Source of the DNA: a bacterium
GTDB lineage: Bacteria; CG03
Assembly: GCA_043825615.1 (NCBI GenBank)
Contig: JBDRRS010000003.1
Location: forward strand, 56,090 to 120,089
DNA length: 64,000 bases
Reading direction: 5' to 3'
How positions within the stretch are numbered: the stretch's first letter is position 1; every line of letters starts with the position of its first letter. Shown here piece after piece: positions 1 to 57,737 of the stretch. Made by a program: the position numbers and the translations under genes. The notes below the pieces were generated by a model. It was not told the DNA's origin and searched no databases. It saw only the letters and a list, made by a program, of their open reading frames with translations.

Positions 1-513
1 TCCTCTCTGATTCATCTTCAGTTTGTCAACATCCATCCTTTCAGGGACGGCAACGGCAGATGCGCAAGAGCGCTGGCGTCATGGGAATTATTCAGAAGGG
101 GCTTTGACTCCCTGCATATTTTTTCGATTGATGAGGTTCTGCTTGAAAACAGGACTCTTTATATTAAAAACCTTCAGAGAGTTCAACTTGAAAAGTATCC
201 GCTTGGGGCGTGGCTGGAATTTATGTCGGAAACAATACTGGAAACGCTTGAGCGCGTTTACAGTCGTATGATGTCAATAGGGATTGCTACCGAGACGCCT
301 GTTTCTATCACTATAAAACAGGAAAAACTTTTGCGAATTATTCAGGAACGGGGAATAATGGGTATTCGTGATATAGCGCGGGCGATTAGAACAACCGTTC
401 CCGGCGCTCACTATGTTCTTAAACCTCTTATCAGATACGGGGTAATCGTCAGAGTCGGACAGTACAAAAATGCTAAATATGCAGTCCCCTCCGCAATTAA
501 GATTTCCAAATAA
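1..513 (+). CDS. Fic/DOC family protein, C-terminal part (5' end outside window) with winged-helix-like tail
   Basis: Frame 1 is open from nt 1 and runs into the listed ORF 223..513. Nt 34-69 translate to HPFRDGNGRCAR, matching the Fic motif HxFx(D/E)GNGRxxR. The tail KLLRIIQERGIMGIRDIARAI looks like a wHTH. Confidence 0.75.
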   Translation, partial: SSLIHLQFVNIHPFRDGNGRCARALASWELFRRGFDSLHIFSIDEVLLENRTLYIKNLQRVQLEKYPLGAWLEFMSETILETLERVYSRMMSIGIATETPVSITIKQEKLLRIIQERGIMGIRDIARAIRTTVPGAHYVLKPLIRYGVIVRVGQYKNAKYAVPSAIKISK

Positions 514-526
514 TGAAAATTAAAAT

Positions 527-3301
527 TTGTCGGCACTGCAAAACCGAACTAATTTTTGCTCAGTTATGGCGGCTAAGATAAAAAAAGTTTTCTTTGCTAT
601 TTTGTTTTTTTCTTTCCTCCCATACGGCATTACTGCAAATGAAGGTTCTCTGACAAGAACTCTTAAAGGGCATACCGGATGGGTGTTGTCGGTTGCATTT
701 TCGCCGGACGGGAAATATCTTGCCTCAGGAAGTGGTGATGGAACAATAAAACTCTGGCGTGTTTCAGACGGCAAATTAATTAGAACTTTTAAAGGTCATG
801 CTAACAAGGTGGTTTCAGTTTCATTTTCTCCCGATGGGAAACTGATTGCCTCTGGAAGTTGGGATTGTACAATAAAAATCTGGCATGTTTCAAAGGGTTC
901 TCTAATCAGAACGCTTAAAGGGCATACCGGATATGTAAACTCAGTATCATTTTCACCTGATGGAAAATATCTTGCATCAGGAAGTGAAGATAAAACAATA
1001 AAAATCTGGCGGACTTCTGATGGCTCTCTCATAAGAACAGTTAAAGGACACATATCCCCTGTGAATTCAGTATCATTTTCACCTGATGGTAAATACTTTG
1101 CATCAGGAAGTGAAGATAAAACAATAAAAATCTGGTCGGCTTTCGACGGTTTTCTCATAGGAACGCTTATAGGACACACAGATTACGTGAGATCGCTATC
1201 ATTTTCACCTGACGGGAAATATATTGCATCAGGAAGTGATGTGTTAGATAATACAATAAAAATCTGGCGCGTCTCGGATGATTCTCTAATAAGAACGCTT
1301 AAAGGGCATACAGGGAAAGTTTATTCAGTATCATTTTCGCCTGATGGAAAATTTCTTGTCTCTGGAAGTCAGGATGAAACAATAAAAGTTTGGCGCATCT
1401 CTAATGGGACATTGATAGAAACGCTCAAAGGACATACATTTAAAGTGTGGTCAGTATCATTTTCACCAGATGGGAAATATCTTGCCTCGGGAAGTTGGAG
1501 AGCGATAAAAATCTGGCTTACACCATGGGAGAAAGAAAAAAGGGACACTGAAGAAGGAGTTGTTAGAGCAATTCAAGAAGCATCGAGACTGATGGAAGAA
1601 CAAGAAATTAAAGCTGCGCATAAAAGAAATGCGGAAAGAAAGGAGAAAGAAAAAAATGAATATCTTAATGCGTTTAACGGGTTATATCTGATTGGGAATC
1701 CAAGGATTGAAATTTTTGCCGGTTCAAAAGAAAATATAGAAATTAAGTTAAATAATGAATCATCGCAGAATTTCAGAGACATTACGGTAAAATGTTCCAT
1801 TTCGCAATCTTCACCTTATATTGAATATAAATCAAAAGAAAAATTAAATGAATTAAAATACGGAGAAGGGAAAAAATTGATTTTTCCGGTTTCTGTCCAG
1901 TGGCATGCAAAGGAAGATAATCTGCATTTTAATTTTGAAATGACGGAGAACCGGTATAATTTTTTCAGAAATTTTTCCATCCCTGTTGAAATAAAGAGAA
2001 GGGAGCCCATTTTCGAAATTCTGGATATAAAAATTGATGATTCTTCAACAGCGGAGACATGGGGTGACGGGGATGGTATCATAGAAAAAGGAGAACGGGT
2101 AAAAATGTCCGTTATGATTGTCAATAATGGAAAAGGCGCAGGAATGTCAAGTGCGTTTCATCTTTTAACAGCGCATCCTCATATAGAAATAACAAAAGGA
2201 AAAGAGGAAAAGGATGATATTCTGCCAGGAGAGAAAAAAGTTACTGAATTCGTACTTTCTCTTGACGCTGGCTATATTGGTCCGAAAGTTCTCCCCCTTT
2301 TATTAAAAATAACCGGCGATTTTGAAGAAAAAATTATTCCTCTAAAATTAAGTTATCGCAGGATATTTTCTGAAAATATAATTATTGTTGTTCTCGGTGC
2401 ATTACTTTTAATTTTTTCCATAGTATTTTTTATCAGGCAAAAAACTGATAAGAAAGAAATTAAACCTGTTCAGACAAAAGGTACAATCTCTGCAGGAATA
2501 CGCTCACAAGGGGATGTATTTGATAAATATGAAATTATTCGCGAGAGGGGTAGAGGCGGAATGGGAATTGTTTATGAGGCGATGAATAAAAAACTTGGCA
2601 AAAAAATCGCTCTGAAAAAAATGAAAGAGGAACTTGCAATAAATCCGAGGGAAAGAGAAAGGTTTTTAATGGAAGCGAGAAGAGTGGCAGTGTTACAACA
2701 TCCCCATATTGTTGATATTTACGACATTATTGAGGAGAAAAATAATATCTATCTTATTTTTGAATTTGTTGAAGGGAGAACAATAGAATGGCATTTAAAT
2801 GAGAAAGGGAAATTCATATTATCAAGGACGATAGAAATAACTAAACAAATATGTGAGGCACTGGATTATGCCCACGGGCATAAAATAATTCACAGAGATA
2901 TGACGACATCAAACATTATGATTTGTCACAATGGCAGAGTAAAGGTAATGGATTTCGGAATAGCAAGAGAGGCGAAGAATACTTTTTCACGGTTAACAGG
3001 AAAGGACACATCCGGCACTCTCGCTTATATGGCTCCCGAGCAGGAATTAGGAAGTTATGATGTGCAGTCGGACATATTTTCCGTCGGTGTTTGTTTTTAT
3101 GAGATGCTTGCAGGTGAACTGCCTTACAAAGGTCCGAACTTCTATTTGCAGAAAACAAAAATGTCATATAGAAAAATCAGAGAAATCAATCCTGAAATTC
3201 CGCAGGAAATTGAATCAATAATTGAAAAATGTCTCCAGCCGGAAAAAGAAAATAGATATAATACGGTTGAAGATTTGATTACAGAACTCAAAAAAATATG
3301 A
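527..3301 (+). CDS. Receptor-like protein: signal peptide, 7 WD40 blades, coiled coil, beta-rich middle domain, TM helix, C-terminal Ser/Thr kinase-like domain
   Basis: Seven GH..V.SVSFSPDGKYLASGS.D.TIKIW repeats (about nt 644-1532). TM helix IIIVVLGALLLIFSIVFFI. Kinase motifs GRGGMGIVY, ALKKMK, HRDMTTSN (nt 2891-2914), DFG, APE. The true start may be the internal MAAKIKK. Confidence 0.85.
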   Translation: MSALQNRTNFCSVMAAKIKKVFFAILFFSFLPYGITANEGSLTRTLKGHTGWVLSVAFSPDGKYLASGSGDGTIKLWRVSDGKLIRTFKGHANKVVSVSFSPDGKLIASGSWDCTIKIWHVSKGSLIRTLKGHTGYVNSVSFSPDGKYLASGSEDKTIKIWRTSDGSLIRTVKGHISPVNSVSFSPDGKYFASGSEDKTIKIWSAFDGFLIGTLIGHTDYVRSLSFSPDGKYIASGSDVLDNTIKIWRVSDDSLIRTLKGHTGKVYSVSFSPDGKFLVSGSQDETIKVWRISNGTLIETLKGHTFKVWSVSFSPDGKYLASGSWRAIKIWLTPWEKEKRDTEEGVVRAIQEASRLMEEQEIKAAHKRNAERKEKEKNEYLNAFNGLYLIGNPRIEIFAGSKENIEIKLNNESSQNFRDITVKCSISQSSPYIEYKSKEKLNELKYGEGKKLIFPVSVQWHAKEDNLHFNFEMTENRYNFFRNFSIPVEIKRREPIFEILDIKIDDSSTAETWGDGDGIIEKGERVKMSVMIVNNGKGAGMSSAFHLLTAHPHIEITKGKEEKDDILPGEKKVTEFVLSLDAGYIGPKVLPLLLKITGDFEEKIIPLKLSYRRIFSENIIIVVLGALLLIFSIVFFIRQKTDKKEIKPVQTKGTISAGIRSQGDVFDKYEIIRERGRGGMGIVYEAMNKKLGKKIALKKMKEELAINPRERERFLMEARRVAVLQHPHIVDIYDIIEEKNNIYLIFEFVEGRTIEWHLNEKGKFILSRTIEITKQICEALDYAHGHKIIHRDMTTSNIMICHNGRVKVMDFGIAREAKNTFSRLTGKDTSGTLAYMAPEQELGSYDVQSDIFSVGVCFYEMLAGELPYKGPNFYLQKTKMSYRKIREINPEIPQEIESIIEKCLQPEKENRYNTVEDLITELKKI

Positions 3302-4029
3302 AAGTAAAAATATGTCCGCAGTGTAAAACAGAAAATAGAGCCGAGGCAAGGTTTTGCAAAAACTGCGGCAACCGCTTTAAAATAATTGCGCTTATTCTTT
3401 TTATTACCGCAATTGCCGGTGCAGTGTATTATTTTTCAGATATTTCTGGACGATCGCGGCTCAATAATGAGCTCCGGTGGTATGGTGGTGATAAATATAT
3501 TCTTAAGGTAAAAGAAACAGTAAAAGGCTGGTTTGTGGAAGGAGACCTTGTTCCCCTATTAGAGATTACCAAAAAGGAAAGTCCGCCTCCAAAGCAGGCA
3601 GGAAAAATTAATTTTAACCAAAAACTTTATGAACAACATTTTGCGCAGGGTAAAAAAGAAGCGGAAAAAGGAAACTGGAATGAGGCAATGAAATCATACA
3701 GGAAATCTCTCCTATATAAGCCGCATGATAAGAAAGCAGAGAATGAACTGAAATTTGTCCGAGATGTTTGGCAGAGAAGAGAATTAAAGAAGGGGGAAGA
3801 AGAAGCGAAAAAAACTCTTGAGAGAGTAGAAGATAAAGAAAAATATGCAAGTCGCGTGGAAAGAATCGAAAATCTGAAAAGGCAATATTATAGCCGAGGA
3901 TTAAATCTATACCAGGCAAAAAAATATGAGGAAGCAATAAAAACGTTCAGGAAACTGCTTATGCTGGAACCTGCTCACCCGCAGGCGCTTTATATAATCA
4001 AAAAATGCGAAGATGCCCTTGGGATATAG
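3298..4029 (+). CDS. Zinc-ribbon / single TM / TPR-like repeat protein
   Basis: N-terminal CPQC...CKNC zinc ribbon, hydrophobic helix IIALILFITAIAGAVYYF, and TPR-like segments (GNWNEAMKSYRKSLLYKP, KKYEEAIKTFRKLLMLEP). Its ATGA start/stop overlaps the upstream kinase gene. Confidence 0.6.
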   Translation: MKVKICPQCKTENRAEARFCKNCGNRFKIIALILFITAIAGAVYYFSDISGRSRLNNELRWYGGDKYILKVKETVKGWFVEGDLVPLLEITKKESPPPKQAGKINFNQKLYEQHFAQGKKEAEKGNWNEAMKSYRKSLLYKPHDKKAENELKFVRDVWQRRELKKGEEEAKKTLERVEDKEKYASRVERIENLKRQYYSRGLNLYQAKKYEEAIKTFRKLLMLEPAHPQALYIIKKCEDALGI

Positions 4030-4082
4030 AAAAAATAGGGCCGGAGGAAATTAACATCCGATGGGTATTAATAAAATTTGAC

Positions 4083-4111
4083 TTGACTGATATTATAGAA
4101 ATCTATATAAT
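4083..4111 (+). promoter_or_regulatory. Sigma70-like promoter candidate (TTGACT, 17 nt, TATAAT)
   Basis: TTGACT at 4083-4088, a 17-nt spacer, then TATAAT at 4106-4111. It lies 37 nt upstream of the ATPase ORF start at 4148. Confidence 0.4.
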
Positions 4112-4147
4112 TAGTCGGGTTGATATTAAAGGAAAAAAGATTAATAG

Positions 4148-5539
4148 ATGAAAAGAATTTATTTTAGAACACTGGACCTGAATGGATTTTGGAACAGGGA
4201 AGAGCACATTGATTTTAATATGGAATCAATAATTCCGAGATTTAAGATAAAAAAAATATTAAGCAGATTAGAAGAAAAAAACATTGAAATAATCACAGGA
4301 CCGAGACAGACGGGAAAAACAACGTTGCTGTATCTCATCATAAAGGATATATTGAAAAACAGGAAAAACCATAAGAGATTATTCTACGTAAATCTTGATA
4401 CGATTGTAAATTACGAACTATTTGAAAACCCCTATTTATTTTATGAAAATATCAAAAGGTCATTTGCCGATGATAAAGGCGTAAATTATCTTTTTATAGA
4501 CGAAGTTCAGAGATTAAGAAATCCGGGACAGTTTTTGAAAGGGATATATGACTTAAAAAAGAACATAAAAATAATTGTTACGGGCTCTTCCTCTCTTGAA
4601 ATAAAATCCAAGACAAAAGAATTTTTAACCGGCAGAAAAAGGGAAACGACATTATTACCGGTTTCATTTTCGGAGTATATTGATTCGGGGAGGAAAATTC
4701 CGGAAGATTTGAAATCACTAAAAATAAATAACAAAACATTGTCATTATGGGCGGATAATGAGTTGCTTTACGGTAAATACCTTTCAGACAAATTGGAATA
4801 TATGCAGCTTTACGGAGGATATCCCGCGGCGCTGACTAAAAAAAATTATGAACAGAGGATTGAAGAACTATCGGAAATATTCAATTCATACATAAAAAAG
4901 GATGTTGTTGATTTTTTAAAAGTTGAACGCATTGATATTTATGACAAATTGATTAAAGTGGCAGCCACGCAAATAGGTAATATGATGAATTTTTCTGAAT
5001 TGTGCTCCCTTGTGCAGGGTAATTTAATAACCGTAACTAAATATTTAAGCATTCTTGAAAAAACTTTCATAACTTATTATTTAAAACCGTTCACCTCTAA
5101 AAAAAGGAATGAGGTCAAACATGCAACCAAATGTTATTTTATTGATACTGGCCTGCGAAATTTTGCCATAAGGCAGTTTAATAAAACCGATACGAGGATG
5201 GATTCAGGAGCATTGCTCGAGAATATTCTTTTAGCTGAAAATTTAAAGAAACAGAAATTAGACGAAGAGATATTTTACTGGAGAACAAAAGCAGGAGCGG
5301 AAATAGATTGTGTTATAAAAAAGCAGGGGAGAATTATTCCGATAGAAATAAAGTCGGGAAAAATAAAAATTGGAGCGCTTACCAAAAGTTTCCATTCTTT
5401 TATTAATTCATTTTCACCTGAAAAAGCCATATTTATCAATAAGGATAAGTTCGGAATAATGAAAATACACAGGACGAGAGTTTATTATATTCCTGCTAAA
5501 TGGTTTCTTTTATACGGTTTAAATTTAATAGGAGAATAA
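4148..5539 (+). CDS. COG1373-type ATPase (AAA_14 N-terminal domain plus DUF4143 C-terminal domain)
   Basis: Walker A GPRQTGKTTLL and Walker B-like LFIDEVQ. The C-terminal part reads WRTKAGAEIDCVIKK...IPIEIKSG, an E-x-D ... E-x-K nuclease-like pattern. Confidence 0.8.
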   Translation: MKRIYFRTLDLNGFWNREEHIDFNMESIIPRFKIKKILSRLEEKNIEIITGPRQTGKTTLLYLIIKDILKNRKNHKRLFYVNLDTIVNYELFENPYLFYENIKRSFADDKGVNYLFIDEVQRLRNPGQFLKGIYDLKKNIKIIVTGSSSLEIKSKTKEFLTGRKRETTLLPVSFSEYIDSGRKIPEDLKSLKINNKTLSLWADNELLYGKYLSDKLEYMQLYGGYPAALTKKNYEQRIEELSEIFNSYIKKDVVDFLKVERIDIYDKLIKVAATQIGNMMNFSELCSLVQGNLITVTKYLSILEKTFITYYLKPFTSKKRNEVKHATKCYFIDTGLRNFAIRQFNKTDTRMDSGALLENILLAENLKKQKLDEEIFYWRTKAGAEIDCVIKKQGRIIPIEIKSGKIKIGALTKSFHSFINSFSPEKAIFINKDKFGIMKIHRTRVYYIPAKWFLLYGLNLIGE

Positions 5540-5555
5540 AAACTCATAAGAATTT

Positions 5556-6830
5556 ATGAAAGTAAAAATCTGTCCGCAGTGCAAGACGGAAAATAGAGCC
5601 GAGGCGGTATTCTGCAAGAACTGCAGAAAAACATTAAAGTTATCTGTAGCGGTGCGATTTATCGCGCTTGGTTTTTTTATTAGCGCTATTGTCGGAGCGG
5701 GCTGGTATTTTTATTCAATAATAAATATCTCCGGTCGAGCAAATGCAAAAATAAAGGAAGCGGAAAAAATTAGGCAGACACTCCCAAAATTCCGTGAAGG
5801 AAAGCATCCTGCTGGTTATTTAAGGGAACAGTATGAAGCGTGGAAATCTCTTCGTTTAGCAAAAGAAACTTATGTTGCAGGGAATTATGCAGCGTCATTA
5901 AAATATGCAAAAAGTGCAATTCAAAAGGCAAAGAAATTAGATGAAACTGCACGCCTTGAATCGGATATAAAATATGGCCGCTGGTTTGTGGAAGGAGAGG
6001 AGAACCTAAAAAAAGCAGAAAAAACCGTAGCAGCAGAGCTTGCTCTGCCTTTATACCGGAGGACACTGGAATGTTTTGAAAAAGTGTTGAATTGCCGCCC
6101 GGATGATTCTGCTTCAAAAGAAAAAATTGAATTTTGTAAAAATAAAATTTATGAGCTACTTTTTATTCAAGGAAAAAATTATGCGGAAAAAGGAAACTGG
6201 GAGGATGCGATAACGTCATATCAGGAAGCATTGAAATACAAGCCGGGCGACAGCAAAGCGGAGAACGAGCTGAAATTTGTAACGTCAAAGAAAATTGATG
6301 ACTCTATTTCCAAAGGAAAAAGATACCTCAATCAAAAAAAATATTCGGACGCGGTGGATGAATTTCAGAAAGCAGTAAATCTCGGAGCATCAGGAGAAGT
6401 AATAGGATTATTGGCGGAAGCGAAGAAGAAGAAGAGGAAGTGGGTGGTACAGAAGGGCGAATGGAGTATAATTGACGATGACCTTGTAATTGTAGGTATC
6501 GGAGGAGGTGATTACCTGATGTGGCCAAGAAACAAATACAGGGCCGGATGCAACAATAATGGAGAATTAAACTGGTCGTCAGCTATGTCCTGGGCGCGGG
6601 ATTTGGTTTATAATGGCTATGACGACTGGCGTCTGCCGACAAAAGATGAACTAAAACAACTCTATGATTATGGGAAGACATATATTACTTACTCATCTTC
6701 TTGGTATTGGTCTTCGTCTGCTCACGCTAGGACCAATTTTACATGGTACGTGTATTTCGGCAATGGCTACGTGGGCTACGTCAATAAGACCGATAGCGGC
6801 TATGTTCGTCCGGTGCGTGGATGCCCGTGA
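5556..6830 (+). CDS. Zinc-ribbon / TM / TPR-like protein with C-terminal DUF1566 (Lcl C-terminal, C-type-lectin-like) domain
   Basis: The N-terminus MKVKICPQCKTENRAEAVFCKNC is nearly identical to that of ORF 3298. It has a TM helix and TPR-like segments. The C-terminus (DDWRLPTKDELKQLY ... GYVRPVRG) is typical of DUF1566. Confidence 0.7.
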   Translation: MKVKICPQCKTENRAEAVFCKNCRKTLKLSVAVRFIALGFFISAIVGAGWYFYSIINISGRANAKIKEAEKIRQTLPKFREGKHPAGYLREQYEAWKSLRLAKETYVAGNYAASLKYAKSAIQKAKKLDETARLESDIKYGRWFVEGEENLKKAEKTVAAELALPLYRRTLECFEKVLNCRPDDSASKEKIEFCKNKIYELLFIQGKNYAEKGNWEDAITSYQEALKYKPGDSKAENELKFVTSKKIDDSISKGKRYLNQKKYSDAVDEFQKAVNLGASGEVIGLLAEAKKKKRKWVVQKGEWSIIDDDLVIVGIGGGDYLMWPRNKYRAGCNNNGELNWSSAMSWARDLVYNGYDDWRLPTKDELKQLYDYGKTYITYSSSWYWSSSAHARTNFTWYVYFGNGYVGYVNKTDSGYVRPVRGCP

Positions 6831-6948
6831 GTATTGATTATTTGATTATTTCCTGCCGAAAGGCAGTGTGGATTTATGAATAAGATTTAGAAAATATGAG
6901 AAACGAAAAATCAGAATTAATAATATCTTTTGAAGAAGGGAGAAAATT

Positions 6949-7947
6949 ATGATATGTCCGGAATGTAAAAAAGAAGTTCCTGAAGGGGAATTCTGTGACC
7001 TTTGCGGAGCAAAATTAGAATCGGCAGGAAAAAGTACGCTCACTTCCGCCCCTGTGCAAAAGCCGTCATCTGAGAGTATATTAAAAGAAAAATATGAGAT
7101 TTTAAGAGAAATCGGGCGAGGGGGAATGGGGATTGTTTATGAGGCGGTGAACAAAAAACTTGGGAAAAAAGTTGCTCTGAAAAAGATGAAAGAGGAACTT
7201 GCAATAAATCCAAGAGAGAAGGAGAGATTTTTGAAAGAAGCAAGGAGAGTTGCCGAACTTCATCATCCGCGCATTGTTGACATTTACGATATTGTTGAAG
7301 AAGAAATCCCCTCACCTAACCTCTCCCCTGAGGGGAGAGGAAAAAGAGAGGGCGGGATTTATCTTGTGTTTGAGTTTGTGGACGGAAGAACAATTGAGCA
7401 GATGCTTAATTCAGGAATGAAATTCAAAGTTAATGAGGCGGTGAAAATAATCAAGCAGGTCTGCGAAGCGCTTGAATATGCTCACGGTAAAAAAATTATA
7501 CACAGAGATGTGAAACCCTCAAACATAATTGTTTGCCCCTCACCTGACCTCTCCCCGAAGGGGAGAGGAATGATGGTAAAAGTGATGGATTTCGGAATTG
7601 CAAGAGAAGCAAAGAATACGTATTCAAGATTAACCGGAAAGGATACATCGGGCACGTTGGCTTATATGGCTCCCGAGCAGGAACTGGGAAGTTATGATGT
7701 GCAGTCGGACATATTTTCGGTTGGAGTATGCTTGTATGAAATGCTCACAGGGGAACTGCCTTACAAGGGTCCAAACTTCTATTTGCAGAAAGAAAAGATG
7801 TCATATAGAAAAATCAGGGAAATCAATCCCGAAATCCCTCAGGGTATTGAATCAATAATTGAGAAATGCCTTCAGCCGGAAAAAGAAAATAGATATCAGT
7901 CGGTGGCGGAATTGATTGATCAAATAGCGGATTTGAAAGATGCTTAG
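6949..7947 (+). CDS. Zinc-ribbon Ser/Thr protein kinase (soluble)
   Basis: N-terminal CPEC...CDLC ribbon. Kinase motifs GRGGMGIVY, ALKKMK, HRDVKPSN (nt 7501-7524), DFG, APE. It is roughly 85% identical by eye to the kinase domain of ORF 527..3301. Confidence 0.85.
   Translation: MICPECKKEVPEGEFCDLCGAKLESAGKSTLTSAPVQKPSSESILKEKYEILREIGRGGMGIVYEAVNKKLGKKVALKKMKEELAINPREKERFLKEARRVAELHHPRIVDIYDIVEEEIPSPNLSPEGRGKREGGIYLVFEFVDGRTIEQMLNSGMKFKVNEAVKIIKQVCEALEYAHGKKIIHRDVKPSNIIVCPSPDLSPKGRGMMVKVMDFGIAREAKNTYSRLTGKDTSGTLAYMAPEQELGSYDVQSDIFSVGVCLYEMLTGELPYKGPNFYLQKEKMSYRKIREINPEIPQGIESIIEKCLQPEKENRYQSVAELIDQIADLKDA
7308..7340. repeat. 33-nt palindromic element, copy 1, in frame inside the kinase gene
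   Basis: Sequence cccctcacctaaCCTCTCCCCtgaGGGGAGAGG. It has a 9-bp perfect stem (7320-7328 / 7332-7340) and translates as PSPNLSPEGRG. It is absent from the paralogous kinase. Confidence 0.65.
7536..7568. repeat. 33-nt palindromic element, copy 2, in frame inside the kinase gene
   Basis: Sequence cccctcacctgaCCTCTCCCCgaaGGGGAGAGG. The stem is 7548-7556 / 7560-7568 and it translates as PSPDLSPKGRG. It is absent from the paralogous kinase. Confidence 0.65.
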
Positions 7948-10477
7948 AATGAAGAAAGACAGGCTGTTCGTAATTGACGGCAACAATTATCTGCACAGGG
8001 CGTATCACGCCCTCCCGCCGCTCACCACGAAGGACGGACGTCCCGTCGGTGCGCTGTACGGTTTTGTCAGAATGATTCTGTCTCTTGTAAAAAAGGAAAC
8101 GCCGGAGTATCTGCTCACGGTTTTCGACACACCCGCGCCGACTTTCAGGCACAGGGAATTTCCGCAGTACAAGGCGACGCGTCCCAAGCCGGAAGATGCG
8201 CTTGTCTTTCAATTGAAAAATATGAGAGAAATCGTTAACCTGCTCGGGGTAAAGACGTTTGAGGCGCCCGGCTTTGAAGCGGATGACATTATGGCGAGTG
8301 TTTGCGGAAAATTTTTGGGGAAGGTAAAGATATTCATTCTGTCCGCCGACAAGGATGTTTCGCAGATTGTCGGTAAAGAAGTCCTGATATACAATGAAAT
8401 GAAAAACCTCGTTATGGGTGAGGCGGAAATCATGCGGAAGTACGGCGTGAGCCCTTCAAAATTTTGCGACTGGCTCGCTCTCACGGGGGATTCCTCCGAC
8501 AACATTCCCGGCGCAAAAGGGATAGGCCCGAAGAGTGCGACGAAACTGCTCGGTTCTTTCTCGGGCGTGGAGGAAATTTACGAAAAGATTGACGAAATTC
8601 CCGCGAACCTCAGAGACAAACTCCTTGAAAGCAGGGAAAATGTTTTTCTTTCGAAAAAACTGGTCACTCTTCTGAAAGACGTTCCGCTGGACTTTGCTCT
8701 TGATGACCTGTCTTTCAGTTTGGATGCGGAGAAGGTGAAGAGCGTCGCCGAAAAGTGGGAGTTTTCTTCACTCCTCCGCAAAGATGACTCTTCCGGGACA
8801 AGCAAAGTTTTTGAGAAAATAAAATATACCGATGACCTTGCCGCGTTTTCCGCCTCCGAAAAAATGGCGGTAAGGTTTGTCAGTTCAAAAGACACAACCG
8901 GCTTTGCGGCGACCGACGGGAAGAACGCGGTTTTTATTCCGACCCTGCAGAGTGAGTTTGATTTCGGAGGAGGTAAAATAGAAGCATTTTTGAAAGTTTT
9001 ATCCCGCGGCGGCTTTTCCGTCGTAACAAATGACGCCAAGCATCTCTGCAAGTTCGCATTATCCAAAAAGCGGGAGCCCGCAGGTCCTTTTGAAGATATT
9101 TCGCTTATGGGGTATGTGCTTGATTCGGGTCCTTCGCAGGACATTTTTAACCTCTCAAGAAAATATCTCGGCGAGGAACTTCCCGCGGCGGTCGGCGAAA
9201 AGGAACAGGCGAAAATAACGGCGCAGTGTTTCAAACTGCGGGAAGTTCTGAAAGAGGAACTCTCAAAGAAGGGTCTGAAATTTTTATACGAGGAAATAGA
9301 ACTTCCTCTGGCGCGGGTCCTCGCGGAAATGGAACTGTGGGGCGTGAAACTTGACTGCGGGATTCTTGAAGAACTTTCCGCCGAAATGGCGGGAGAAATT
9401 ACAGCGGTACAGAAGACAATATTTTCTCTCGCAGGCGTTACATTTAACATAAATTCACAAATTGAAATGAGACGGGTACTCTTTGAAAAACTGAAACTTC
9501 CGGTGAAAAAACAGAAAAAAACCGGCGCGTCCGTCGACGCTTATGTCCTCAGGGAACTTTCGGCTTTTCACCCTATTTGCAGTGAAATAATAAAATACAG
9601 AACTCTCTCAAAATTGAAATCAACTTATGTGGATGCTCTGCCGCGCCTGGTGGCCGGCGACAACCGGCTCCACACCGATTTCAATTCGACGGGAACTCTT
9701 ACAGGGCGTCTTTCTTCCTCAAACCCGAACCTGCAAAACATTCCCGTCAGAGGCGAGTTCGCCTTCAAGATCCGTTCCGCATTCGTAGCGGAAGAAGGCT
9801 GCGTTCTGATTTCGGCTGATTACTCGCAGATTGATTTGAGAGCGCTTGCGCATTTTAGCGGCGACGAGCGGCTCCTGAAGGCATTCAGGGAGAACGATGA
9901 CATCCATAATTTTACCGCTTCGCTGGTCTTTGGCGTCGGAAGAAAAGATATTACGGGAGAGCAGCGCCGTATTGCGAAGACAGTGAATTTCGGCATTGTT
10001 TACGGAATGTCATCATACGGGCTTTCCGCCGACCTGGGTATTTCGAAAAATGAAGCCAAAAAAATTATAGACAATTACTGGATGATTTTTCCGGAAGTGA
10101 AGAACTATGTCGAAAAAAGCATTGAGGACGCGAAAAGGCATGGTTTTACGGAAACGCTTTTTAAGCGCCGACGGCCCATTTACGGGCGTTCGCCTTTTGA
10201 GCAGCGCGTTGCGGTGAACACGCCGATTCAGGGGACGTCCTCCGACATAATAAAAAAAGCAATGGTTGATATTTTTCCCATTCTTAAAGATTACGGGGCG
10301 AAAATGATTCTGCAGATTCACGATGAACTTCTTTTTGAAGTGGAGAATGACAAGTCATTGAAATTTGCTAAAATTGCGAAAACGACCATGGAAAAAGCCG
10401 TCGAATTAAAAGTCCCCGTAAAGGTAAATGTTAAATCGGGCAGGAATTTTGCCGGGATGGAAGCGCTGAATGTTTAA
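7940..10477 (+). CDS. polA: DNA polymerase I
   Basis: N-terminal 5'-nuclease domain (LFVIDGNNYLHRAYHAL). Pol motifs DYSQIDLRALAH, RRIAKTVNFGIVYG, QIHDELLFE. An alternative start lies at 7949. Confidence 0.95.
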   Translation: MLRMKKDRLFVIDGNNYLHRAYHALPPLTTKDGRPVGALYGFVRMILSLVKKETPEYLLTVFDTPAPTFRHREFPQYKATRPKPEDALVFQLKNMREIVNLLGVKTFEAPGFEADDIMASVCGKFLGKVKIFILSADKDVSQIVGKEVLIYNEMKNLVMGEAEIMRKYGVSPSKFCDWLALTGDSSDNIPGAKGIGPKSATKLLGSFSGVEEIYEKIDEIPANLRDKLLESRENVFLSKKLVTLLKDVPLDFALDDLSFSLDAEKVKSVAEKWEFSSLLRKDDSSGTSKVFEKIKYTDDLAAFSASEKMAVRFVSSKDTTGFAATDGKNAVFIPTLQSEFDFGGGKIEAFLKVLSRGGFSVVTNDAKHLCKFALSKKREPAGPFEDISLMGYVLDSGPSQDIFNLSRKYLGEELPAAVGEKEQAKITAQCFKLREVLKEELSKKGLKFLYEEIELPLARVLAEMELWGVKLDCGILEELSAEMAGEITAVQKTIFSLAGVTFNINSQIEMRRVLFEKLKLPVKKQKKTGASVDAYVLRELSAFHPICSEIIKYRTLSKLKSTYVDALPRLVAGDNRLHTDFNSTGTLTGRLSSSNPNLQNIPVRGEFAFKIRSAFVAEEGCVLISADYSQIDLRALAHFSGDERLLKAFRENDDIHNFTASLVFGVGRKDITGEQRRIAKTVNFGIVYGMSSYGLSADLGISKNEAKKIIDNYWMIFPEVKNYVEKSIEDAKRHGFTETLFKRRRPIYGRSPFEQRVAVNTPIQGTSSDIIKKAMVDIFPILKDYGAKMILQIHDELLFEVENDKSLKFAKIAKTTMEKAVELKVPVKVNVKSGRNFAGMEALNV

Positions 10478-12408: not shown

Positions 12409-12992
12409 TTAAACCGGGAACGGTTGTTGGCGGGCAGCCGGAGTTCTGCGGCGCGGGCGCGACTCTTGCGGAGTTAATGGCGCGGGACAAATGGCTTGAA
12501 GTAAAAAGCGCCTGTAAAATAATAATGCAGGTTCTCGAAGTTCTTGCTCATATGCATTCGCGCGGGGTCATACTTCAAAACCTGAACCCGGAAAACATTA
12601 TTGTCTCAGGGAAGGGGGGCATAAAATTTGCTGATTTAGATTCGGCATATTATTTTGAAGCAGGAGCCGTCTCGCCGCCGGGCGCGCCCGGCGCGGTGGA
12701 ATATATGAGCCCGCAGAAGTTTTACGGCGACGTTTCAACCGAAAGCGATGTTTTTTCTGCGGGAGTCCTTTTTTACCGGCTCCTCACCGGCCATTTCCCG
12801 TACGCCCCGAGCGAAATTATTTCATACCCCGAAGCCGCCGCAAAGCCGCATCCTGTATCCCATTATAACAAAAGCGTTCCTCCGCCGCTGGAAAATGTGA
12901 TTATGAAGGCAGTCGCTCTTAAGAAGAAGGACAGATTCCCGACGGCGAAAAGTTTTATATCAGCGCTTTTAAAAACAGGAGCGGTCAAATGA
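12405..12992 (+). CDS. Protein-kinase C-lobe-only protein (predicted pseudokinase)
   Basis: It aligns to a Hanks kinase from the hinge onward. The catalytic loop is LQNLNPEN (nt 12573-12596) instead of HRDLKPEN. DLD replaces DFG and SPQ replaces APE. No P-loop or VAIK region is present. The start overlaps the upstream stop by 4 nt. Confidence 0.6.
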   Translation: MIKPGTVVGGQPEFCGAGATLAELMARDKWLEVKSACKIIMQVLEVLAHMHSRGVILQNLNPENIIVSGKGGIKFADLDSAYYFEAGAVSPPGAPGAVEYMSPQKFYGDVSTESDVFSAGVLFYRLLTGHFPYAPSEIISYPEAAAKPHPVSHYNKSVPPPLENVIMKAVALKKKDRFPTAKSFISALLKTGAVK

Positions 12993-57715: not shown

Positions 57716-57737
57716 AAAGGGGGAAACTGCCCCCTTT
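57716..57737 (+). terminator. Strong hairpin between the two GH57 genes (AAAGGGGG-6nt-CCCCCTTT)
   Basis: A perfect 8-bp stem with no clear U-tract. Confidence 0.3.

Follow-up and report, generated by a model that had tools for sequence, protein, structure and literature searches.

Two near-identical hairpin sequences lie within the coding region of one protein kinase gene on contig JBDRRS010000003.1, and they raise the question of what kind of DNA can occupy a kinase domain twice and leave its reading frame open. We addressed this question in a 64,000-nt stretch of the contig, referred to here as the window. The two sequences, both 33 nt long, are very probably copies of a small non-autonomous repeat, defined by its structure and belonging to the class known as BoxC, PIT or TMECO, that was copied twice into the kinase gene and is read through as loops of the protein. 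The features that this account concerns are as follows (ORF, open reading frame).

6949..7947, + strand: host gene, a Hanks-type Ser/Thr protein kinase of 332 aa, identified from the ORF list and the translation
7308..7340, + strand: repeat copy 1, CCCCTCACCTAACCTCTCCCC-TGA-GGGGAGAGG, encoding the peptide PSPNLSPEGRG
Parts of copy 1: Hoogsteen-type block CCCCTCACC (7308-7316), loop TAA (7317-7319), pyrimidine arm CCTCTCCCC (7320-7328), loop TGA (7329-7331), purine arm GGGGAGAGG (7332-7340)
7341..7356, + strand: 3' tail of copy 1, a spacer AAAAA followed by a degenerate G-rich fourth block GAGAGGGCGGG (7346-7356)
7536..7568, + strand: repeat copy 2, CCCCTCACCTGACCTCTCCCC-GAA-GGGGAGAGG, encoding the peptide PSPDLSPKGRG
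Parts of copy 2: block CCCCTCACC (7536-7544), loop TGA (7545-7547), pyrimidine arm (7548-7556), loop GAA (7557-7559), purine arm (7560-7568)
2470..3301, + strand: kinase domain paralogous to that of the host gene, C-terminal in the WD40-kinase ORF 527..3301, empty at both sites and used as the comparator

The original prediction of two 33-mers with perfect 9-bp stems agrees with the letters at both places, where each stem consists of 9/9 Watson-Crick pairs closed by a 3-nt loop. The copies match at 30/33 positions, the exceptions being position 11 and two positions in the loop, and AA follows both. Their description as a 33-nt palindromic element stands for the repeat and the stem and not for its extent: the palindrome covers only 21/33 nt, and the remainder is a third block, the 5' CCCCTCACC, which mirrors the purine arm. 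When CCCCTCACC is set against GGGGAGAGG, 8/9 positions obey the parallel pyrimidine rule (C.G / T.A), with a single A.A mismatch. In copy 1 the 3' tail also pairs with the 5' AAATCCCCTC, giving a two-tier four-block palindrome of about 50 nt, whereas copy 2 has three blocks and no fourth. The folding energy as single-stranded DNA is -10 kcal/mol per copy (z-scores -2.8 and -3.1), and the RNA folds reach -28.5 kcal/mol for copy 1 (7300-7360), with an outer stem enclosing the inner 9-bp stem, and -22.6 kcal/mol for copy 2. No third copy was found in the window by a search allowing 2-3 mismatches, and a perfect-hairpin scan of the same DNA returned these two copies as the only hairpins with a pyrimidine arm, a purine arm and a stem of at least 7 bp.

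Both copies lie inside ORF 6949..7947 on the plus strand and in the same reading frame, so that the frame is kept at each insertion as had been proposed. The predicted read-through peptides covering the inserts include PSPNLSPEGRGK, EEEIPSPNLSPEGR and IIVCPSPDLSPK. Three of the six frames are open in copy 1 and four of six in copy 2; half or more are open because homopyrimidine and homopurine blocks cannot hold stop codons.

That the segments are insertions is seen most directly by comparison with the kinase domain of ORF 527..3301, with which the DNA of the host kinase aligns at a mean column identity of 84%. The paralog has a gap of 45 nt at site 1 (7307-7351), followed by 5 mismatched bases, and gaps of 18+9 = 27 nt at site 2, which correspond to the gains of 15 aa and 9 aa claimed at the outset. 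Empty sites were also sought among the 120 best homologs from public metagenomes, and the site had its canonical length in 85/98 readable sequences at site 1 and in 105/113 at site 2, so that most of the homologs, like the paralog, are empty at the two sites. In a neighbor-joining tree built with the inserts removed, the nearest neighbor of the host kinase is the empty paralog within the window, and both insertions are therefore later than that split. Site 1 follows the purine run GAAGAAGAAA, and the paralog has AAT GGC AGA in frame opposite the purine arm AAG GGG AGA of site 2. These purine matches could be microhomologies that guided insertion, or they could be due to chance.

The insertions had been expected to fall in surface loops, and structural modeling bears this out. 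An AlphaFold model of the host kinase (mean predicted local distance difference test score, pLDDT, 84.5; predicted template modeling score, pTM, 0.78) shows both inserts as coil: insert 1 (residues 122-132) is flanked by strands 112-121 and 133-142, and insert 2 (residues 198-207) by strands 193-197 and 208-212. Within the kinase core the confidence of the model is lowest over the two inserts, where 10-residue blocks average pLDDT 56 and 72, and the only comparably low block is the activation segment at about residues 221-240. Mycobacterium tuberculosis PknB, the best solved relative of the host kinase (E=2e-41), agrees with the model in having alignment gaps of 11 and 9 residues opposite the two inserts. 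Site 1 is thus the beta4-beta5 loop of the N-lobe and site 2 the beta7-beta8 turn; the latter has the catalytic loop HRDVKPSN on one side and the DFG motif on the other, a position that was correctly called beforehand and is confirmed in the translation. A Pfam Pkinase match (E=1.5e-54, residues 49-317) covers the domain end to end, and the catalytic residues K78, E97 (the alphaC Glu), HRD185-187, N192, DFG214-216 and PE242-243 fall in invariant alignment columns. Judged by these residues, the host kinase is intact despite its two insertions. The N-terminus carries a zinc-ribbon-like CxxC...CxxC motif in the translation.

The block architecture relates the element to a known class of repeats. 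Both copies show the three consecutive blocks of a triplex motif, whose stems of about 9 nt may include at most one mismatched triplet and whose third stem follows the Hoogsteen or reverse-Hoogsteen rule; pairing is at 9/9 positions and the third block agrees at 8/9. On the minus strand copy 1 reads CCTCTCCCC-TCA-GGGGAGAGG-TTA-GGTGAGGGG, a class II motif, and the minus-strand oligo sequence of the element is CCTCTCCCCTCAGGGGAGAGGTTAGGTGAGGGG. The BoxC/PIT/TMECO repeats have reportedly also been credited to Bachellier et al. (1990s) and to Hoyne & Maher 2000. According to Holder et al. 2015 (PMC4666352), the repeat was first called BoxC, later PIT elements and now TMECO, an 'intrastrand triplex motif', with 3610 copies in 262 proteobacterial genomes; it forms a stable triplex in single-stranded DNA in vitro, in vivo formation not having been shown. 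In that scheme a second loop of TTA defines type A and one of CCG type B. The minus-strand second loop of copy 1 is TTA (type A) and that of copy 2 is TCA, which is neither type A nor type B. A full-text literature search with GGGGAGAGG returned only unrelated primer lists.

A direct comparison was made with E. coli, using as the query a consensus of the similar repeat of that species. The consensus matched 5419/5426 E. coli genomes, at a median of 33 places in each, and among ten places listed none lay under an annotated feature. Examples are tCCCCTCACCCTAACCCTCTCCCCGGAGGGGCGAGGGTTAGGGTGAGGGc between fimH and gntP and CCGCTCACCCCAGCCCTCTCCCCACAGGGGAGAGGGTTAGGGTGAGGGG between cpsG and wcaJ. 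Window copy 1 can be written CCCCTCACC-TAA-CCTCTCCCC-TGA-GGGGAGAGG and the fimH-gntP copy CCCCTCACCC-TAA-CCCTCTCCCC-GGA-GGGGCGAGGG(-TTA-GGGTGAGGG). The two have in common the order of the blocks, the first loop and the position of the single mismatched triplet, but in the window copy each block is one base shorter, and one purine-arm base and the hairpin loop differ. The near-identity extends to the outer part, GGGGAGAGG-TTA-GGTGAGGGG in the window and GGGGAGAGGG-TTA-GGGTGAGGG in E. coli. Like the window element, the known class has three-block and palindromic four-block forms and is multi-copy and dispersed in many genomes, and for both neither a function nor a mobilizing enzyme is known. The hosts are different, a probably Elusimicrobiota-related metagenome-assembled genome (MAG) of 46% GC here and proteobacteria or cyanobacteria for BoxC/PIT/TMECO. 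By its architecture, the element is a shortened variant of the BoxC/PIT/TMECO 'intrastrand triplex motif' class and not a strict TMECO.

The distribution of the element is wide. We scanned one genome per GTDB species (596 Gb) with the pattern ACCTNACCTCTCCCCN{3,5}GGGGAGAGG, whose 22 specified bases are expected less than once by chance, and found at least 139 matches in at least 120 stretches from at least 10 phyla. Among the matches listed, the hosts include Alphaproteobacteria (Reyranella, Xanthobacter, Azospirillum and others), Desulfobacterota, Planctomycetota, Chloroflexota, Bacteroidota, Ignavibacteriota, Nitrospirota/Nitrospinota, Omnitrophota, Verrucomicrobiota, Acidobacteriota and Rokubacteria. 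Isolates with the motif include E. coli, Reyranella soli, Flexilinea flocculi and Methyloligella. The bases outside the pattern are nearly invariant among the matches listed (5' CCCCTC, 3' (A/G)A), and therefore the whole 33-35-mer of the window is common across phyla. Some genomes hold many copies, with at least 14 stretches in the alphaproteobacterial MAG CAVXWG01 and at least 10 in the Desulfobacteraceae MAG JBNKKC01, and full four-block palindromes occur at loci L100, L129 and L132, the last from E. coli. Plasmid matches come mainly from Azospirillum and Rhizobium. A scan of viral contigs gave 6 stretches only, and a phage link was set aside for want of an evident association.

Two local arrangements were noted among these matches. 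At 7089-7780 on the minus strand of locus L033 (MAG contig CAVXWG010000004.1) there are four tandem 196-nt units, each made of a hairpin, GGTGAGGGGG, a 27-nt spacer, CCCCCTCACC and a second hairpin, that is, an inverted pair of 33-mers, followed by about 100 nt of GC-rich DNA. Comparable arrays, spaced at 176-191 nt, are present in L058 and L099, and these arrays look like an amplified composite of the triplex motif resembling a miniature inverted-repeat transposable element. In Reyranella and related Alphaproteobacteria (L008-L118), most copies have longer common flanks, with gcaggagacagtcttcgNgttga upstream and aacATGa downstream, which places the purine arm GGAGAGG at Shine-Dalgarno distance from the ATG; many Reyranella-type copies end in GGAGAGGaacATGa. 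A hairpin that sequesters a Shine-Dalgarno sequence was considered and set aside as an explanation, as it has no bearing inside an ORF and is not general.

Residence within genes was examined with stop-to-stop ORFs spanning the matches, followed by Pfam searches. The window-type motif was found inside four Pfam-confirmed proteins.

Histidine kinase with GAF, Chloroflexota: insert in the HATPase_c domain
UvrD, Xanthobacteraceae: insert between helicase motifs II and III
HrpA, Verrucomicrobiota: insert between the HA2 and OB domains
DnaE2, Stellaceae: insert in the HHH_6 domain

All three open frames are in use, giving PSPNLSP..GRG, PHLTSP..GE and PLP.GERLGEG. The same behavior was found for a sister variant, CCCCCTTT-nnn-AAAGGGGG. 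A metagenome scan with TCCCCC-N3-6-CCCCCTTT-NNN-AAAGGGGG yielded at least 142 unique positions, and 23 of those listed lay within ORFs of 200 aa or more. Eight of eight sister-variant ORFs tested are real proteins with domain matches on both sides of the insert or across it (polyprenyl synthase, CarA, Dus, UDP-GlcNAc 2-epimerase, GH57, RsmE, an O-methyltransferase and a MetH-like protein). Together with the four window-type proteins, 12/12 of the other instances checked with Pfam are in frame within real proteins. An association with kinases is not a general rule and was rejected as such, since none of the 23 ORF-internal sister-variant matches among those listed is a kinase.

Two further cases belong beside these observations. 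The insert in the UvrD of the Xanthobacteraceae MAG (L052, about 1400-1600) is about 60 residues long and includes at least two triplex-type repeats that differ in sequence (TNLTSPHGGEV..., ...PSPQPSPHRGEG), so that one loop has been colonized either in nested or in tandem fashion. The window itself carries at 57716-57737 a purine-first hairpin, AAAGGGGG-AAACTG-CCCCCTTT, whose arms are those of the sister variant in reversed order, and by its block order this is not a triplex-class motif in the same sense.

Within the kinase family, sister variants also occupy these two loops in homologs from other metagenomes, in both orientations and in some cases decayed.

L002, site 1: ATCCCCCTCAAT-CCCCCTTT-TGC-AAAGGGGG
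L001, site 1: two tandem elements with loops TTC and ATC
L127, site 1: a decayed remnant
L003, site 2: loop ATC
L004, L129 and L131, site 2: loop GAT

The element of L129 is a near-perfect two-tier palindrome, ATCCCCC-TCAG-TCCCCCTTT-GAT-AAAGGGGGA-ATAAAA-GGGGGAT. The GAT form is the reverse complement of the ATC form, and the ATC form occupies site 1 in L001 and site 2 in L003; occupation of different sites in different genomes is the pattern that a mobile element would produce. The insert-bearing kinases are scattered over the neighbor-joining tree, and several are positional orthologs with a TPR/Lcl_C gene directly upstream. L002 and L127 are 86% identical overall and 42-58% identical across the insert, which indicates decay. 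The opposite relationship was observed for L004 and L131, whose nucleotide identity is 63% overall, 93% across the insert and 71-73% just outside it. These values suggest that near-identical copies were inserted more than once at one and the same junction, or else that there is constraint at the nucleotide level. Gene conversion with long flanks is not supported for this pair, as identity peaks on the insert and falls outside. No other such hairpin was found in about 86 kb of non-kinase DNA of the kinase loci, which were chosen for their inserts; the local density of hairpins in the kinase genes is high, in loci selected by insert.

A third in-frame insertion, of 12 residues, was observed in the C-lobe of kinase P0008 (L003, 860-905). 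Its local sequence, GQSPSTTSSVMGTVP, is that of a different repeat and is bounded by the near-palindromic direct repeats GGGACAGTCCCC ... GGGGACAGTCCC, and a second kind of small repeat therefore also colonizes this kinase.

Overall these results are best accommodated by a class of repeats built from three 9-nt blocks, namely a pyrimidine block, the purine block complementary to it and one that mirrors the purine arm, sometimes with a fourth that makes a two-tier palindrome. After the host kinase split from its paralog in the genome, one copy would have entered the beta4-beta5 loop and one the beta7-beta8 turn. Both would have persisted for two reasons: the homopyrimidine and homopurine blocks contain no stops and the net gains of 45 and 27 nt keep the frame, and both landing sites are predicted to be solvent-exposed hairpin turns. 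The repeat would be read through as a Pro/Ser/Leu-rich and then a Gly/Arg/Glu-rich peptide that lengthens the loop, and we infer that the ribosome translates the segments and that their effect on the kinase is roughly neutral. The class probably spreads by structure-dependent copying, which might proceed through a single-strand hairpin or triplex intermediate, through template switching or microhomology, or by the action of a trans-acting enzyme. To our knowledge, no transposase has been described for the BoxC/PIT/TMECO class.

Several observations weigh against this account. The published TMECO pattern, CCCTCNCCC N3-6 GGGNGAGGG N3 GGGNGAGGG, has no match on either strand of the window, because the blocks beside the TTA loop are one G shorter (CCTCTCCCC / GGGGAGAGG / GGTGAGGGG). 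Holder et al. 2015 (PMC4666352) found the 23 TMECO copies of E. coli K-12 to be always intergenic, whereas the window copies are genic and in frame, and they reported that TMECO is not tied to transposons, phages or plasmids. When filled and empty sites were compared, no clear target-site duplication or clean element boundary was found. The window contains just two copies and both are in one 1-kb gene, far from random expectation, and multi-copy status in the source genome is unproven from 64 kb. Finally, the conservation of the L004 and L131 inserts is not explained by a plain neutral relic.

This last observation bears on an alternative in which the hairpins are kept as cis-acting DNA or RNA structures, acting as translational pauses, as RNase or mRNA-stability elements, or as hot spots of recombination or instability that diversify the kinase family. 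Consistent with such a role, both stems are perfect, two copies are present in one gene, the RNA folds are strong, and the same two loops have been struck repeatedly in the family; the L004/L131 insert also exceeds its flanks in identity even though those flanks hold catalytic motifs. Triplex motifs are moreover linked with local sequence instability in E. coli (PMC4666352). The insert is nevertheless absent from most homologs, the closest paralogs included, and stems decay elsewhere, as one pair is broken in L131 and the insert of L127 is the least conserved part of an 86%-identical gene. We saw no compensatory changes. Rfam gave no curated RNA family for the window region or for eight loci, with only sub-threshold microRNA-like hairpin matches, and earlier work summarized by Holder et al. 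2015 (PMC4666352) found TMECO/PIT elements to be without promoter or terminator activity. We therefore regard a cis-acting function as unlikely.

Selection on the protein is less probable still. Under this explanation the Pro/Ser-rich and Gly-rich loops (PSPxLSPxGRG) would have been selected for regulation or docking, for example as Ser-Pro phospho-sites, and the hairpin would be a by-product. The peptides do contain Ser-Pro motifs, both insertions lie in loops that vary among kinases, and P-rich/G-rich inserts are found at the same loops in several relatives. However, most occurrences of the same DNA, which is present in more than 100 genomes, are extragenic, other proteins use each of the three open frames and so carry unrelated peptides, and 9/9 complementarity in both copies is not expected from selection on a peptide. 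The low model confidence of the inserts and their lack of regular secondary structure also argue against adaptation, which we hold to be quite improbable.

It is highly improbable that the segments are missing from the protein, whether through translational bypassing, as in the yeast mitochondrial 'byp' elements and T4 gene 60, or through excision from the transcript. The site 1 hairpin does follow directly on an Ile codon ATC, with an Ile codon ATT after the insert, and Lang et al. 2014 are said to have described GC-rich palindromes in AT-rich mitochondrial genes that are bypassed, which would serve as a precedent. Every insertion allele examined, in the kinases and in 12 other proteins, is nonetheless in frame and free of stops (in a set that is biased to intact ORFs), a state that bypassed elements do not need, and there is no stop codon after the putative take-off codon. 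Chance low-complexity sequence or an assembly artifact, as might be suspected of C/T-rich and then G/A-rich DNA on a metagenome-assembled contig, is effectively refuted by the absence of any match to the 33-mer in 100 dinucleotide-preserving shuffles, by analogous insertions in independent ENA, JGI and Logan assemblies and by the same motif in isolate genomes. Each of these explanations accounts less well than a dispersed BoxC/PIT/TMECO-class repeat for the noncoding copies of more than 100 genomes.

The element was originally likened to the Rickettsia palindromic elements (RPEs). The likeness is real in that RPEs are also palindromic repeats that lie between genes and are fused in frame in conserved protein genes, with surface positions tolerating the repeats and a product that is still functional in the tested case (PMC2229807). 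The in-frame behavior, the tolerant loops and the dispersal of the window element over at least 120 stretches all fit this comparison, but the element is neither an RPE nor new. RPEs are 105-146 bp long, AT-rich and confined to Rickettsia, with terminal inverted repeats of about 12 bp (PMC2229807), whereas the window element is 33-50 nt long, has homopyrimidine/homopurine blocks and a triplex grammar, occurs in many phyla, is unrelated in sequence and has a host that is not Rickettsia. Repetitive extragenic palindromic (REP) sequences and their REPIN forms, mobilized by REP-associated tyrosine transposases (RAYTs), are likewise short GC-rich hairpin repeats of 20-40 nt that are found alone or in inverted pairs and are plentiful in some genomes while close relatives lack them (PMC3116915, PMC3733652). 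The GTAG/CGTC tag of REP/REPIN is at neither end of either window copy, and REP elements are extragenic by definition whereas the window copies are genic. BoxC has no known RAYT link (PMC4666352), and none was searched for in this analysis. The window element is distinct in sequence and host from two further kinds of small repeat. These are the Nostoc small dispersed repeats (Elhai et al. 2008) and the yeast mitochondrial GC clusters or 'byp' elements, which are reportedly mobile hairpin repeats of about 20-55 nt that can enter genes; byps are skipped by the ribosome, whereas the window copies are in frame and stop-free.

The surroundings of the host gene were also examined. Window positions 1-8000 encode the WD40-kinase, a zinc-ribbon/TPR protein, a DUF4143 ATPase, a TPR/Lcl_C protein and the host kinase. 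The WD40-kinase (527-3301) consists of a seven-repeat WD40 beta-propeller joined via a transmembrane segment to its kinase domain. A third, weak kinase-like match is present at 12456-12947. Another paralog (P0007, 77% identical) is encoded elsewhere on this 252-kb contig, and kinases have multiplied in the source genome. Downstream, the kinase ORF overlaps by 8 nt (7940-7947) the start of polA (7940..10477), which encodes a family-A DNA polymerase with a 5'-3' exonuclease domain, and this overlap suggests co-transcription and translational coupling. The GC content is 33-41% in window 1-8000 and 42-54% in 8001-64000, and it is 31-43% at homologous kinase loci of other metagenomes. The first 8 kb may be an acquired low-GC island, or the composition may be a trait of this gene cluster.

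Members of the BoxC/PIT/TMECO class have been known for about 30 years without a function, an origin or a route of spread, and have been described as strictly intergenic in proteobacteria and cyanobacteria. Judged from the matches collected here, what appears to go beyond the published description is their presence far outside Proteobacteria and Cyanobacteria, their frequent in-frame residence in conserved proteins and their recurrence at two turns of a kinase. As a tentative extension, which we would call possible and somewhat doubtful, BoxC-like micro-repeats with a triplex grammar (30-50 nt) could be a pan-bacterial form of ultra-small mobile DNA that routinely colonizes coding sequence and does not land at random. 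Targeted landing is raised because near-identical copies with identical junctions occur at the same two kinase turns in genes that are about 60% identical, and the targeting might conceivably be guided by structure or microhomology, for example by purine or G runs such as the conserved glycine codon of the beta7-beta8 turn. If the class does colonize coding sequence routinely, it would give rise to lineage-specific loop insertions in proteins. The in-frame copies in many conserved enzymes and the spread of the 33-nt core over at least ten phyla make what has been an E. coli curiosity a possible general source of loop insertions in bacterial proteins. The pairs of filled and empty sites found in nature provide material for working out the copying mechanism. 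For annotation, such repeats account for the recurrent P-rich/G-rich 'linker' peptides (PSPxLSPxGRG, NPPxPPFxKGG) of metagenomic proteins.

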